A stretch of DNA of 10,564 bases. It comes from a virus. The translations under genes and the position numbers were made by a program. Below are positions 6,299-8,975 of the stretch, one piece after another (position 1 is the first letter of the stretch; each line of letters opens with the position of its first letter). The notes below the pieces were generated by a model that had not been told where the DNA came from, made no database searches, and was given only the letters and a program-made list of their open reading frames with translations. Where the stretch lies: UHGV virus genome UHGV-1326494, one strand, 5' to 3'.

Positions 6299-6577
6299 TC
6301 AGGCCTCAAAACTGTTGCAGCAGTCTTGAGGCTTTTCTTTTGTCAGCACCTTGGCTACTTTCTTTGCCAGTTCCGCCAATTCCTCGTCTTCAACACCCCA
6401 CTCCAGCACAGCCAGAAGCATGGCCATCTTTGGGATAAAACTGTCTTTCCATCGCGAAATTTGCGATTCATTAATCCCTAACGCGTCAGCAACCTTTCGC
6501 TGACCACGTACAGCAATTCGATTCAGGATGTTGCTTGTAATTGCATTCGCTTTCTTGCGAGTACTTGTAAGTTGCAT
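6299..6577 (-). CDS. c1: cII-like transcriptional activator (P22 c1-type, 92 aa)
   Basis: Start chosen at ATG 6575-6577 (MQLTSTRKKANAITSNILNRIA...GINESQISRWK...MLLAVLEWGV), which has the cII-family helix-turn-helix and conserved C-terminal motif. The longer track ORF (121 aa) would run through nutR. Confidence 0.8.
   Translation of the reverse strand: MQLTSTRKKANAITSNILNRIAVRGQRKVADALGINESQISRWKDSFIPKMAMLLAVLEWGVEDEELAELAKKVAKVLTKEKPQDCCNSFEA
6301..6343 (+). terminator. Plus-strand intrinsic terminator overlapping the 3' end of c1; candidate terminator of an oop-like antisense RNA
   Basis: Stem gcctcaa (6303-6309) / ttgaggc (6326-6332), with an inner actg/cagt sub-stem, followed by cttttcttttgt. 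Orientation is antisense to the PR operon. A possible extended -10 (TGTCATAAT, 6259-6267) lies about 65 nt upstream on the plus strand. Confidence 0.45.
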
Positions 6578-6600
6578 ATGTAAGTATTTCCTTAACAAAT

Positions 6601-6628
6601 AAGAAGTTATGCGCATCAAATTATGCGC
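6601..6628 (-). terminator. Candidate tR1-like partial terminator between nutR and c1
   Basis: Inverted repeat gcgcat (6611-6616) / atgcgc (6623-6628). On the minus-strand transcript it is followed by a moderately U-rich stretch (AUAACUUCUUAUUUGUU). The U-tract is interrupted, so this is weak. Confidence 0.3.
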
Positions 6629-6636
6629 GTTGTATT

Positions 6637-6679
6637 CCCGCATTTCGGCGGGAATGATGACCATGACTGTTAAAGAGCA
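6637..6679 (-). promoter_or_regulatory. nutR: boxA plus boxB hairpin downstream of cro
   Basis: On the minus-strand RNA, boxA UGCUCUUUAACA (complement of 6668-6679) is followed by a hairpin CCCGC-CGAAAU-GCGGG (complement of 6637-6652). The same boxA core and identical boxB occur at nutL on the other strand. Confidence 0.6.
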
Positions 6680-6951: not shown

Positions 6952-7602
6952 ATGAAAACTCAATTGATGGGAGAGCGCATTCGCGCTCGGAGAAAAGAAC
7001 TCAAGATCAGGCAGGCCGCACTTGGAAAGATGGTCGGCGTGTCTAATGTTGCCATATCTCAGTGGGAACGCTCTGAGACAGAGCCAAATGGAGAGAATCT
7101 TCTCGCCCTGGCTAATGCGTTGAAGTGTTCCCCTGACTATCTGATGAAAGGAGAGGAAAGTCTTTCAAACATTGCCTATCACAGTAGGCATGATCCAAGA
7201 GGGTCATACCCTCTGATTAGCTGGGTGAGCGCAGGATGCTGGATGGAAGCTGTAGAACCATATCATAAGCGTGCAATAGATAACTGGTACGATACAACCG
7301 TAGACTGTTCAGAAGATTCGTTTTGGTTGGACGTGAAGGGAGACTCAATGACGGCTCCGGCCGGTCTCAGTATCCCTGAAGGAATGATAATACTCGTCGA
7401 TCCTGAAGTAGAGCCGCGTAACGGGAAACTGGTAGTTGCAAAGCTCGAAGGAGAAAACGAGGCAACTTTCAAGAAGTTAGTTATTGATGCAGGCAGGAAG
7501 TTTCTAAAACCACTTAACCCACAATATCCGATGATCGAGATCAACGGAAACTGCAAAATCATCGGCGTAGTTGTCGATGCAAAACTAGCAAACCTTCCAT
7601 AA
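6952..7602 (+). CDS. c2: Prophage repressor, P22 c2 / lambda cI family (216 aa) with HTH N-domain and LexA-like autocleaving C-domain
   Basis: ORF track 216 aa. N-terminal HTH (QAALGKMVGVSNVAISQWERSE) and C-terminal S24 peptidase-like domain (AG cleavage region, VKGDSM serine motif, a K near the C-terminus). Length matches P22 c2. Confidence 0.9.
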   Translation: MKTQLMGERIRARRKELKIRQAALGKMVGVSNVAISQWERSETEPNGENLLALANALKCSPDYLMKGEESLSNIAYHSRHDPRGSYPLISWVSAGCWMEAVEPYHKRAIDNWYDTTVDCSEDSFWLDVKGDSMTAPAGLSIPEGMIILVDPEVEPRNGKLVVAKLEGENEATFKKLVIDAGRKFLKPLNPQYPMIEINGNCKIIGVVVDAKLANLP

Positions 7603-7629
7603 GGGGGCATTCGCCCCTTTTTTTTATTT
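7601..7629 (+). terminator. Intrinsic terminator immediately after the repressor gene
   Basis: Hairpin aagggggc-attc-gcccctt (7601-7619) followed by a T-run (to 7629). It overlaps the repressor stop codon. Confidence 0.7.
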
Positions 7630-7649: not shown

Positions 7650-7722
7650 ACTTAAGTTACGAAAGAAAATTTAAGTTTTCTTCAAAAATACTCTTGACCA
7701 TTAATTAAAGAGATCTTAAATT
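7650..7722 (+). promoter_or_regulatory. OL/PL region: PL promoter with an embedded operator
   Basis: -35 TTGACC (7694-7699), 17-bp spacer, -10 TAAATT (7717-7722). Operator-like site attaaagagatcttaaat (7703-7720) sits in the spacer. Further TTAAG/CTTAA half-sites at 7650-7680 are candidate extra operators. Confidence 0.6.
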
Positions 7723-7767
7723 TAAGCCATCAGCAGGACGCTGGTAGCCAAACGGAACAGATTGGCA

Positions 7768-7809
7768 GGCTCTTTAACATTGATGGGATTGTCCCGCCGA
7801 AATGCGGGA
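7768..7809 (+). promoter_or_regulatory. nutL: boxA plus boxB hairpin downstream of PL
   Basis: boxA GGCTCTTTAACA (7768-7779). boxB stem cccgc (7793-7797), loop cgaaat (7798-7803), stem gcggg (7804-7808). The RNA is identical to the nutR boxB transcribed from the opposite strand. Confidence 0.6.
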
Positions 7810-7980
7810 ACCAAAGAGTAGTTGGCTTTGGGGTGTGGTGAAGGGTTCATGGACGGGAATATGTCGCACGTAAAGCGGCGAGGCCTGCGGAACTATTGCC
7901 GAATTGAAGTCGGACGAAGCGGGTCGAAATGGGTCTCCCACCTACCACACCACCAAAGCTAATCATCTGAGGAACAAAAA

Positions 7981-8100
7981 ATGTTAGACATCATGACCAA
8001 CCCAATTCTCGGTGGTTTAGTTACCACATTCGCCATCTGCTTCGGTTTCACTATCTGGTCTGAAGTAGATGACTGGATGTGGGAACGCAAAAACAAATAA
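7981..8100 (+). CDS. Candidate small hydrophobic protein (39 aa) in the PL leader between nutL and the N-like gene
   Basis: ATG at 7981 preceded by GAGGAA at about 7 nt. MLDIMTNPILGGLVTTFAICFGFTIWSEVDDWMWERKNK has one predicted transmembrane segment. No homology claim. Confidence 0.3.
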   Translation: MLDIMTNPILGGLVTTFAICFGFTIWSEVDDWMWERKNK

Positions 8101-8140
8101 TCATCGTCACACAAGGATGTGTACCTTCCCGGAGGTCAAC

Positions 8141-8413
8141 ATGACAGTAGTCATTACATATCTGGCTGACGATAATGCCAGAAATCGCCGCAGAGCACGC
8201 AGACAGGCTCAACGTGAACAGGCAATGCAAGAGCAGCGACTGGCGCGAAAAATTGCGCTAAAGCTCTCTGGTTGCGTCAGAGCAGACAAAGCAGCATCAC
8301 TCGGAAGCCTTCGCTGCAAGAAGGCAGATGAATGCAGTGGAAGTATTTGCCTGCCAAACGTAGCTCTTTACGCGGCAGGCTACCGGAAATCAAAACAACT
8401 GACAGCGAGGTGA
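8141..8413 (+). CDS. N-like transcription antitermination protein (90 aa from the GGAGG-supported start; alternative 114-aa form from ATG 8069)
   Basis: GGAGG 6 nt upstream of ATG 8141. Arginine-rich motif NARNRRRARRQAQREQ near the N-terminus. The C-terminus (...VALYAAGYRKSKQLTAR) resembles what I remember of P22 gene 24. Located downstream of PL and nutL. Confidence 0.75.
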   Translation: MTVVITYLADDNARNRRRARRQAQREQAMQEQRLARKIALKLSGCVRADKAASLGSLRCKKADECSGSICLPNVALYAAGYRKSKQLTAR

Positions 8414-8435
8414 CGATCCCCGCGCCGTCGAGGAA

Positions 8436-8975
8436 CTAAATTAGCTCATCAGCTTTACCAGCAAAGCGCATATAACACTCATGGAACCAGACGTCAGGTA
8501 TAACAAATTTCTCTTTACCTGACGCGCTGTAAGTCACACCTGAGCGATGGAGAAGGCCTTTTCTCATAAGAGATAAAGCGACCGGATCGCCGTGCTTAAG
8601 TACGATTTTGTTATTTGCCATAACAGCAAATGCTAAAACCTCTTTTTCCTGAATACTCAGAGAATTGAATAGGCGCTCAGTCTCCACAATTACTTTAGCC
8701 TCATCTATCTTACTGAGATATTTTTTATATCTGTCTGAAGATGCCAGAAATATAAACTCCACCCCCCTGTTCAGAACATAACTGATACACAAAAGCATTG
8801 CGTAATACATCCAGTGATCTGGAAGTATTTCGGGGTTCCTTATATCTACCCACTCTTTAATTGATGCTGGGGTGATTATTATCAAGGTAATTAAAATAAT
8901 AAGCATATGAATTAACTGTTGTAGCGTAAGACCACGCAGGAAGAAACGTAATAGTTCCTGCCACCAGTTACTCAT
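8436..8975 (-). CDS. Membrane protein antisense to the PL operon (179 aa); superinfection-exclusion SieB-like by position and architecture, family not confirmed
   Basis: ORF track 179 aa. GGAG about 8 nt upstream of the ATG at 8973-8975. Two predicted TM segments (LIHMLIILITLIIIT and WMYYAMLLCISYVL) followed by a soluble domain. The gene is visibly AT-rich compared with its neighbours and is convergent with the N-like gene. Confidence 0.65.
   Translation of the reverse strand: MSNWWQELLRFFLRGLTLQQLIHMLIILITLIIITPASIKEWVDIRNPEILPDHWMYYAMLLCISYVLNRGVEFIFLASSDRYKKYLSKIDEAKVIVETERLFNSLSIQEKEVLAFAVMANNKIVLKHGDPVALSLMRKGLLHRSGVTYSASGKEKFVIPDVWFHECYMRFAGKADELI

Follow-up and report, generated by a model that had tools for sequence, protein, structure and literature searches.

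Which part of the open reading frame at positions 8069–8413 of the window (the whole 10,564-nucleotide stretch of viral DNA analysed here) belongs to an N antiterminator gene, and from which phages do its parts derive? An initial annotation had described this frame as encoding a mosaic N-like protein with a lambda-like arginine-rich motif (ARM), a carboxyl-terminus like that of P22 gene 24, and, upstream and in frame, the remnant of a second ARM. The translation of the frame was exactly as given there. We are highly confident that the gene is an HK620-type N and a mosaic of three modules, that positions 8069–8140 lie outside N, and that the likeness of this stretch to the P22 ARM is most plausibly a coincidence. 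The features concerned are as follows.

8141–8413, plus strand: N antiterminator gene of HK620 type, 90 amino acids plus stop codon, assigned by homology, Pfam and phrog
8131–8135, plus strand: Shine-Dalgarno sequence GGAGG of N, 5 nt 5' of the ATG at 8141, read directly
8069–8140, plus strand: in-frame upstream stretch, with the motif 'GNAKTNNHRHTRM' at 8081–8119; not part of N

The start at 8141 supported by a ribosome-binding site was confirmed: in addition to the GGAGG in the window, the sequence GGAGGTCA(A/T)C located 5' of the ATG was invariant among approximately 100 HK620-type N genes. The encoded protein was 97–99% identical throughout to the N proteins of HK620 (AAK28866.1), JEP4, mEp213, HK630 and HK140, which are likewise 90 amino acids long and differ by one to three residue changes; it corresponds to annotated N in HK620, JEP4, mEp213 and HK140. 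The exact 90–amino acid sequence is recorded on 120 contigs, and PGAP has called an identical 273-nt coding sequence in E. coli genomes. The Pfam profile PF25694 (N_peptide, based on P22) matched with 59.5 bits (cut-off, 27.9 bits), with residues 11–90 of N aligned to profile positions 13–100, and phrog_271 matched with an E value of 1.1e-33. This profile, the register of the ARM, the position in the pL operon and the nut sites all place the protein in the P22 gp24 branch of lambdoid N proteins, and an ARM module identical to that of HK620 at 33 of 33 amino acids and 98 of 99 nucleotides, together with an identical boxB, places it in the HK620 type. Positions 8141–8413 are thus an already catalogued lambda/P22-like prophage N gene, module-swapped as is usual for such genes.

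Comparisons with other N genes revealed three modules, a map that holds at both the protein and DNA levels and whose junctions are visible in the sequence comparisons.

8141–8239, plus strand: module 1, amino acids 1–33, amino-terminus and ARM (ARM core at 8174–8221), near-identical only in HK620-type N
8240–8332, plus strand: module 2, amino acids 34–64, middle segment of phage 21 type, matching imm21 N at 30/31 amino acids and 91/93 nt
8333–8410, plus strand: module 3, amino acids 65–90, carboxyl-terminus of H-19B/HK97/P22 type, matching H-19B and HK97 at 21/22 and P22 gp24 at 19/24 amino acids

Outside the HK620 type, module 1 resembled other N proteins by generic ARM similarity alone. Phage 21 N shares residues 34–64 (LARKIALKLSGCVRADKAASLGSLRCKKA.E) but differs in its ARM, its boxB (CUCAACCUAACCGUUGAG) and its carboxyl-terminus, which is of the lambda/21 type (...GRQKIKLGSKPLI). 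The N proteins of H-19B, 933W and HK97 share the final 22 residues (95% identical), whereas their other approximately 100 residues are unrelated and the boxB of those phages is of the P22 type. P22 gp24 has in common the PF25694 profile, the MTV(V)ITY start and a related carboxyl-terminal module (LP.VALYAAG.RKSKQ.TAR), whereas its middle segment is unrelated and its ARM, although in the same register (NAKTRRHERR versus NARNRRRARR), differs in sequence. Lambda N is the same kind of protein, with the same mechanism and the generic ARM core, but differs in boxB and in the middle and carboxyl-terminal modules. In other phages that share the ARM, module 3 is swapped for a lambda/21-type carboxyl-terminus, as in the SCU-308 form. 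Proteins of the N family are short and for the most part disordered.

The proposed resemblance of the carboxyl-terminus to P22 gp24 was borne out, with residues 47–90 being 59% identical (tblastn E value of 3e-6), but P22 gp24 is a more distant relative of module 3 than are H-19B, HK97 and 933W. The mosaic nature of the gene was likewise demonstrated at the DNA level, but with parents other than those proposed, namely an HK620-type ARM, a phage 21 middle and an H-19B/HK97/933W carboxyl-terminus; it evidently arose by recombination among lambdoid phages. The HK620 record of 2001 already states 'similar to Bacteriophages H19B and 21 N protein,' and domain swapping among N/gp24 proteins has been described, for example, for phage L versus P22 gp24 (PMC8022706).

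The surroundings of the gene are those of a lambdoid immunity region, with a C2/LexA-type repressor, P22-type Cro, CII, O, a DnaB-like helicase and SieB, as well as a cI terminator.

6952–7602: cI-type repressor gene
7694–7722, plus strand: pL promoter (TTGACC, 17 nt, TAAATT), at the position of the annotated HK620 pL
7769–7809, plus strand: nutL, with boxA GCTCTTTAACA at 7769–7779 and the boxB hairpin at 7792–7809; annotated as nutL in HK620
6636–6678, minus strand: nutR, between cro and cII, with boxA GCTCTTTAACA at 6678–6668 and the boxB hairpin at 6653–6636
7821–7963, plus strand: N-leader hairpin with a 19-bp closing helix and one bulged A (7821–7839 and 7944–7963)
7981–8100, plus strand: conserved 39-codon membrane-peptide gene (MLDIMTNPILGGLVTTFAICFGFTIWSEVDDWMWERKNK), phrog_7482, with GAGG 8 nt upstream

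The order is therefore repressor, pL, nutL, an RNase III–type leader hairpin, an insert with the small membrane-peptide gene, and N, which is the first strongly translated regulator in the pL operon. In HK620 and the four other phages whose N proteins are compared above, the boxA and boxB of nutL, the ribosome-binding site and the placement after pL are all as in the window. The leader between nutL and N is short in HK620, whereas that in the window is longer and contains a leader hairpin of the HK97/933W/lambda type and the 39-codon gene.

The hairpin had a folding z-score of –3.6, and positions 7830–7965 were 95% identical to the HK97/933W leader. It has GGCUUUGGGGUGUG and CACACCACCAAAGCUAA in common with the leader of lambda, in which the homologous hairpin lies between nutL and the first ribosome-binding site, and the inner 7–10 bp of the helix covary among at least six leader variants. 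These comparisons identify 7821–7963 as homologous to the hairpin in the N leader of lambda that RNase III cleaves. A tRNA-like element or RNase P substrate formed by a 7-bp helix and A-CCA within 7832–7954 was considered and rejected, given that the CCA pairs inside the 19-bp helix and that the lambda leader has those strands; ARAGORN and Rfam yielded nothing for this stretch. PGAP has annotated a 'tRNA-OTHER' at the equivalent site in E. coli AR_0058.

The 16-nt boxB sequence CCCGCCGAAATGCGGG was found twice in identical form, at 7793–7808 on the plus strand and at 6637–6652 on the minus strand, each time after boxA, with a chance expectation of 0.01 for such boxA-boxB matches. The two sites face the two early operons. 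The boxB RNA (UUGUCCCGCCGAAAUGCGGGAACC) is predicted to form a 6-bp stem and a 6-nt loop (UCCCGC-CGAAAU-GCGGGA), in contrast to the GCGCUGACAAAGCGC pentaloop of P22 boxB. The homology of the protein to P22 gp24 and lambda N, and the co-inheritance described below, lead us to infer that it acts by antitermination. Its HK620-type ARM (approximately residues 10–30; ARM peptide YLADDNARNRRRARRQAQREQAMQEQR) would bind boxB in the nutL and nutR RNAs as these are being transcribed, and N together with Nus factors loading at the adjacent boxA would render RNA polymerase resistant to termination. Module 3, at the carboxyl-terminal end, is presumed from the example of lambda N to contact the polymerase.

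The relation between ARM and boxB was surveyed from both sides. On the RNA side, viral contigs were picked by the boxB 16-mer and downstream N genes were detected with a regular expression; all 77 of the 77 N genes so detected have an HK620-type ARM. Another 11 loci with both sites gave no match to the expression, and eight of these were inspected: six contained a complete N open reading frame with LADDNARNRRRARRQAQREQA and variant first residues, one contained an N open reading frame without the ARM end, and one had too little downstream sequence. Among the surveyed loci, LADDNARNRRRARRQAQREQA was found after every nutL with the window-type boxB; the HK620-type pair consists of ARM LADDNARNRRRARRQAQREQA and boxB CCCGCCGAAAUGCGGG. 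The carboxyl-termini in the boxB-selected loci were of the lambda/21 type in 38 cases and of the P22/H-19B type in 33. On the protein side, the HK620 ARM was accompanied by the window-type boxB in two of two cases, the P22 ARM by GCGCTGACAAAGCGC and the phage 21 ARM by CTCAACCTAACCGTTGAG. In 27 sequences selected solely by the small gene (26 loci and the window), the type of ARM always corresponded to that of boxB where upstream sequence was available. Strict co-inheritance of ARM and boxB in approximately 100 loci, with the other modules varying, indirectly supports binding between the two as well as antitermination.

The survey also bears on whether the ARM (NARNRRRARRQAQREQ, residues 12–27 of the 90–amino acid N) might be functionally lambda-like and recognize lambda boxB, since both loops contain GAAA. 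This N does share an RRR-x-RR core and a QAQ tripeptide with lambda N, and the boxB loop includes GAAA. However, in a multiple alignment the core NARNRRRARR, in register with DAQTRRRERR, NAKTRRHERR, TAKSRYKARR and NSRSRRRERL, matched lambda, P22 and H-19B at 6/10 positions each and phage 21 at 5/10, and the best ungapped BLOSUM score was approximately equal, at 36 each, for lambda, P22 and H-19B. The PF25694 match covers the ARM, whereas the lambda ARM profile PF11438 (N36) did not match this N at an E value of ≤1; lambda N itself scored 92 bits. In lambda N, Trp18 makes a stacking contact with the boxB loop; the present protein has Ala28 at that place in the alignment and contains no Trp among its 90 residues. 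Furthermore, the boxB has a CGAAAU hexaloop on a G-C–rich stem of a different sequence, not the 5-nt GAAAA or GAAGA loop and 5-bp stem of lambda, and in approximately 100 loci this boxB was found with no other ARM and this ARM with no other boxB. We therefore regard recognition of lambda boxB as improbable. The arginine-rich motif and the GAAA in both boxB hairpins are present as first described, but the likeness is not specific to lambda and compatibility with a lambda-type ARM was not supported. The ARM module constitutes an HK620-type class of its own, not derived from lambda. We found no published binding or structural data on the pair of a Trp-less ARM and a CGAAAU hexaloop; the literature located on HK620, boxB and antitermination omits this pair.

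The stretch upstream of N presents a different problem. Positions 8069–8100 coincide with the 3' end of the small gene, read here in the +1 frame, and 8101–8140 are the intergenic spacer with the ribosome-binding site of N. The peptide TGCGNAKTNNHRHTR nevertheless matches TFAGNAKTRRHERRR of the P22 ARM (full ARM, GNAKTRRHERRRK) at 8 of 15 residues, corresponding to residues 10–24 of P22 gp24 and including an exact GNAKT, and only 11 of 200,000 composition-preserving shuffles scored against four reference ARMs reached this likeness (p of approximately 5e-5). The motif noted initially is thus present and nominally beyond chance. Given also its suggestive place, just 5' of N and in frame, and the occurrence of the insert in phages with a P22-type N, positions 8081–8119 could be what survives, in decayed form, of the 5' end of an ancestral gene 24 of P22 type, with recombination or duplication having left it there and the small gene having overprinted part of it. 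Other evidence makes this very unlikely. The DNA of the stretch did not resemble that of the P22 ARM (shuffle p of 0.3–0.65). Identities by codon position were 10, 8 and 4 of 16, with third positions at the random level, the reverse of the pattern expected for a relic not under selection. No likeness flanks the 15 residues, nothing like MTVITY is found upstream at the spacing expected, that place being occupied by a stop codon (8066–8068), and key arginines are missing (RR replaced by NN, and ERRR by RHTR).

The distribution of the motif also argues against a recombination scar. The block of homology among N genes begins at the ribosome-binding site (CGGAGGTCAACATG, at approximately 8130), and the PF25694 match stops short of the upstream stretch. 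An MTGC...AKT upstream frame was found for 22 of approximately 100 HK620-type N genes (20 with GNAKT, one with WNAKT and one counted twice), and was confined to N genes with the small-gene insert, the commonest arrangement being an unrelated upstream frame without a start codon. The insert is rare and also precedes P22-type N genes that are intact, so nothing was replaced there.

The motif overlaps a small gene that is itself genuine. Phrog_7482 matched over the full length of residues 1–39 (E value of 8.1e-25), the 39-codon open reading frame retains its length at 84% nucleotide identity with silent and conservative changes, and the exact 39–amino acid peptide occurs on 800 contigs. The clustering of this peptide with N variants of 99–101 amino acids was treated as an artefact, and the exact-sequence count alone was used. 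Searches for the gene were performed with a 40-codon DNA reference and an exact 27-nt DNA pattern. RefSeq leaves the gene, which occupies the position of the lambda N start site, unannotated. Its WERKNK-stop tail forces the +1 frame to read G-(N/S)-(A/E/G/V)-(K/R)-(T/I) with any synonymous codons, and drift of the +1-frame motif has already occurred (GSAKT, WNAKT): in a diverged copy before a P22-type N, a change of GAA to GAG leaves the small peptide unaltered and converts GNAKT to GSAKT in the +1 frame. One locus (L020) shows a substitution that alters the small peptide and is silent in the 8069 frame. Distant full-length relatives of the small gene were found in virulent phages (Mooglevirus and Avunavirus), and these weak matches (tblastn E values of 0.02–0.2) yielded no N gene, which suggests that the small gene was not derived from N. 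That 8072–8116 is a true vestige and that the small gene took over the 5' end of a gene 24–type N by overprinting or duplication accordingly has, in our estimation, a very slim chance of being correct. The coincidental reading, which draws on this evidence and not on the shuffle statistics, is preferred.

A longer isoform, in which translation also initiates at ATG 8069 to give a 114–amino acid N with an amino-terminal extension, merits almost no credence: although the frame is open from this ATG in all 27 insert-carrying sequences (over 24 nearly identical codons, so that this carries little weight), the ATG lies within the small gene, whose translation uses a different frame, and is preceded at 3 nt by only a GAAG rather than a usable Shine-Dalgarno sequence, the extension is missing from most HK620-type N genes and falls outside the family profile, PGAP and phage annotators all start at the equivalent of 8141, and the exact 114–amino acid sequence has never been recorded by gene callers and is missing among the 15 billion proteins on record.

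Public records already contained this N gene, the nut sites and the mosaic ancestry, in the HK620 annotation of 2001, in Pfam N_peptide and in identical proteins numbering in the hundreds. Were the upstream stretch a vestige after all, the locus would preserve a fossil of the birth of a small gene inside an antiterminator leader. For the HK620-type N as we read it here, the position of the small gene at the lambda N start could alter N autoregulation, and the combination of an ARM lacking Trp and a boxB with a CGAAAU hexaloop represents a putative specificity class of modest residual interest. The family provides a natural experiment in which the ARM co-segregates with boxB and the carboxyl-terminal module assorts freely.

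The gene at 8141–8413 on the plus strand is an N gene of the HK620 type and is already known. The long ORF at 8069–8413 that contains it is present, with the translation given in the initial annotation. Its surroundings form a standard P22/lambda-type immunity region with the following features.

6637–6652, minus: boxB hairpin CCCGCCGAAATGCGGG at nutR, identical to that at nutL
6952–7602: LexA/C2-type repressor gene
7601–7620: terminator of the repressor gene
7694–7722, plus: pL promoter
7733–7830: HK620-type nutL segment of the leader
7793–7808, plus: boxB hairpin CCCGCCGAAATGCGGG at nutL
7821–7963, plus: leader hairpin (7821–7839 paired with 7944–7963; 19 bp, one bulged A)
7830–7965: HK97/933W-type leader segment, 95% identical
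7966–8128: rare insert (31 of 5426 E. coli genomes)
7981–8100, plus: small gene, GAGG 8 nt upstream, product MLDIMTNPILGGLVTTFAICFGFTIWSEVDDWMWERKNK
8069–8413, plus: long ORF
8131–8135, plus: Shine-Dalgarno GGAGG of N, 5-nt spacer to the ATG at 8141
Strand opposite N: P22-type Cro, then CII, O and a DnaB-type helicase
Downstream of N and convergent with it: SieB

Translation from the ATG at 8141 yields 90 amino acids, MTVVITYLADDNARNRRRARRQAQREQAMQEQRLARKIALKLSGCVRADKAASLGSLRCKKADECSGSICLPNVALYAAGYRKSKQLTAR. In megablast and tblastn searches of phage genomes, the block 8130–8411 was 96–99% identical to HK620, HK630, JEP4, ECP1, mEp213 and HK140, in each of which N is annotated as a 273-nt CDS with the identical start. 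PGAP predicts the same 273-nt CDS in E. coli chromosomes (once named 'transcriptional antitermination N peptide'), and the exact protein is recorded on 120 contigs. The Pfam family PF25694 (N_peptide, P22 gp24 family) scored N at 59.5 bits against a cut-off of 27.9, and the phrog_271 profile matched it with an E value of 1e-33. Some part of the stretch 7650–8450 is matched by 1678 of 5426 complete E. coli genomes. Both boxB copies lie 12–15 nt past a GCTCTTTAACA boxA (chance expectation, 0.01 matches) and are predicted to form a 6-bp stem capped by a 6-nt loop, CGAAAU; nutR is situated between cro and cII. A mechanically called cII ORF of 121 amino acids (6299–6664, minus) passes in its upstream part through nutR (boxA 6678–6668, boxB 6653–6636), and the Pfam CII domain fits the 91-residue form with its ATG at 6574, not the 121-residue ORF; this is another upstream in-frame extension outside the gene proper.

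Segment-by-segment comparison at the amino acid and nucleotide levels resolved N into three modules.

Residues 1–33, ARM: HK620-type N only (33/33 amino acids, 98/99 nt)
Residues 34–64, middle: nearest to phage 21 N (30/31 amino acids, 91/93 nt)
Residues 65–90, C-terminus: nearest to H-19B and HK97 N (21/22 amino acids); P22 gp24, 19/24

The mosaic character proposed in the initial annotation was thus borne out. The resemblance of the C-terminus to P22 was also correctly seen (tblastn with P22 gp24 gave 59% identity over residues 47–90, E 3e-6), although H-19B and HK97 are the nearest relatives there, and the phage 21-like middle had been missed. The GenBank record of HK620 describes its N as 'similar to Bacteriophages H19B and 21 N protein'. 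A comparable exchange of the C-terminal 25–35 residues distinguishes the otherwise near-identical, functionally interchangeable gp24 proteins of phages L and P22 (PMC8022706).

Contrary to the initial annotation, the ARM is not specifically lambda-like. Residues 1–33 show only generic ARM similarity to N proteins other than the HK620 type, and in a multiple alignment the core NARNRRRARR shares, in register, 6 of 10 residues with each of lambda (DAQTRRRERR), P22 (NAKTRRHERR) and H-19B (NSRSRRRERL), and 5 with phage 21 (TAKSRYKARR). Ala is aligned with Trp18 of lambda N, and a Pfam profile search with the lambda ARM model PF11438 did not match the protein.

Viral contigs scanned with the boxB 16-mer alone gave 119 loci. 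At 77 sites a regex search placed the ARM of N no more than 1 kb downstream, and it detected no other ARM type; the remaining sites lie on the nutR side or on truncated contigs. Of 11 two-site loci that lacked a regex match, 8 were inspected: six contain a complete N ORF with LADDNARNRRRARRQAQREQA after variant first residues (MIIVTY..., MTVVITI..., MAVVITF...), some with a quite different middle and C-terminus, one has an N ORF without the ARM end, and one has too short a downstream sequence. Among the 77 ARM-positive proteins, the C-terminus was of the lambda/21 type in 38 and of the P22/H-19B type in 33. When GTDB genomes were searched from the protein side, the HK620 ARM was paired with the boxB of the window (2/2), the P22 ARM with GCGCTGACAAAGCGC and the phage 21 ARM with CTCAACCTAACCGTTGAG, and in 27 sequences picked by the small gene only, ARM and boxB types agreed wherever upstream sequence was present. 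Such co-inheritance, as read from sequence, is the expected signature of an N protein's RNA-recognition module, and residues ~10–30 therefore probably bind the boxB hairpin. The H-19B and HK97 ARM (GNSRSRRRERLKAK) is quite unlike that of P22, yet their nutL boxB is the P22 GCGCTGACAAAGCGC.

The leader between nutL and N is itself composite. Its hairpin, with a branched interior (folding z, −3.6), adopts the same fold in HK620, P22 and lambda, and the strings GGCUUUGGGGUGUG and CACACCACCAAAGCUAA are common to the lambda leader. The inner 7–10 bp of the helix covary in at least six variants: GGTGACGTG/CGCGTCACC, GATTGGATG/CATCCAATC, GATTTGATG/CATCAAATC, ACTGGCG/CGCCAGT, GGTGAATGCA/TGTATTCACC and GGTGTGGTG/(T/C)ACCACACC. 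The structure is homologous to the hairpin of the lambda N leader that RNase III cleaves. According to Wilson et al. (1997, 2002), as cited in PMC5725501, RNase III acts through that hairpin on translational autorepression of N. With A-CCA-AAG at the end of its 3' strand, the hairpin appears tRNA-like at first look; in a relative, E. coli AR_0058 (NZ_CP021689.1, 4471566–4471646; L007 401–481), PGAP labels the hairpin interior 'tRNA-OTHER', a tRNA-like insert within the N leader that has a canonical-looking T arm (ACCAG-TTCAAGT-CTGGT) and a D arm.

Whereas the lambda N RBS directly follows the helix, in the window this position is occupied by the small gene, and N begins 160 nt beyond it, preceded by a strong RBS of its own. 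The small gene encodes, in 39 codons, a small single-pass membrane peptide and is a real gene, because phrog_7482 matches the product over its full length (E 8e-25), the exact peptide occurs on 800 contigs (once labelled 'putative membrane protein'), its few homologues keep the tail while the hydrophobic half varies, and copies at 84% DNA identity retain ORF length, with conservative replacements and many silent changes (TTA→CTG, ATC→ATT, GGT→GGG, GAA→GAG and others). Virulent Mooglevirus and Avunavirus phages also carry weak but full-length, colinear relatives (34–38% identity) sharing M-L/I-D/E-I-x-x-NPIL-x-G...E-x-x-D. In those E. coli genomes where it occurs, the gene has no PGAP/RefSeq annotation; it precedes both HK620-type and P22-type N. 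The peptide is grouped in a 90%-identity cluster otherwise listing N variants of 99–101 residues, which looks like a look-up or clustering artefact. The distance from boxB to the N start ranges from ~100 to ~620 nt, and a viral contig (L129) has a 193-residue ORF between nutL and N of this ARM type (~63–645 nt downstream of boxB), which shows that extra genes have inserted repeatedly between nutL and N.

Read from 8069, the frame runs in the +1 register through the small gene's last 10 codons and then through a 40-nt spacer holding the RBS of N. The initial annotation saw in it the remnant of a second, P22-like ARM, and at the peptide level the likeness is striking: TGCGNAKTNNHRHTR matches the P22 ARM TFAGNAKTRRHERRR at 8 of 15 residues with a BLOSUM62 segment score of 40, above that of the real ARM against any reference ARM, and when the 24-residue stretch was shuffled 200,000 times, only 11 of the shuffles reached this score against four reference ARMs, so the likeness cannot be set aside on statistics alone. 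All other evidence speaks against homology. At the DNA level, neither P22 gene 24 nor either of two P22-type N genes from E. coli is similar to the stretch (shuffle p, 0.3–0.65), and in-register nucleotide identities at codon positions 1, 2 and 3 were 10, 8 and 4 of 16, with random third positions, the reverse of the pattern of an unselected relic. Similarity to gp24 does not extend past the 15 residues in either direction, a stop codon (8066–8068) sits where the rest of its N-terminus should be, and the ARM-defining arginines are missing. Among ~100 N genes of this type, the motif is confined to those bearing the insert, the commonest upstream arrangement being an unrelated frame without a start codon. 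The basic tail W-E-R-K-N-K-stop of the small peptide forces the +1 frame to G-(N/S)-(A/E/G/V)-(K/R)-(T/I); the GAA→GAG change, silent in the small gene, gives GSAKT before a P22-type N, and another genome has WNAKT.

A recombination scar fares no better: conservation with HK620, JEP4 and HK140 starts at CGGAGGTCAACATG (~8130), upstream of which the sequence differs phage by phage, and in eight sequences the same insert precedes an intact P22-type N with a P22-type boxB, so it replaced no such gene. A 114-residue isoform from 8069 is not supported, given that this ATG lacks a Shine-Dalgarno sequence, the PF25694 match does not extend into 8069–8140, and the 114-residue sequence is not among ~15 billion recorded proteins. 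Of the overall initial reading, the mosaic therefore stands without the lambda-type ARM, scar or isoform. The temptation of a long ORF has a history: the accepted lambda N is the ARM-bearing 107-residue form beginning MDAQTRRRERR, whereas the old record J02459 (J02459.1, 35037–35438; L013) starts N at an ATG upstream in the same frame, for a length of 133 codons.

The order pL, nutL, leader hairpin, small gene and N, the place of nutR, the ARM in the N-terminal module of N and the module boundaries are all evident from the sequence. As family membership and co-inheritance indicate, the ARM would bind boxB in nascent transcripts and NusB/E the adjacent boxA. By analogy with lambda N, for which both properties are established (PMC8022706, PMC3526286), the complex would enable RNA polymerase to resist termination, and the C-terminal module would contact the enzyme. 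More speculatively, the loop C-GAAA-U could take the form of a canonical GNRA tetraloop with a closing C-U mismatch, in contrast to the pentaloop with an extruded base of lambda and P22 boxB, which would fit an ARM without Trp.
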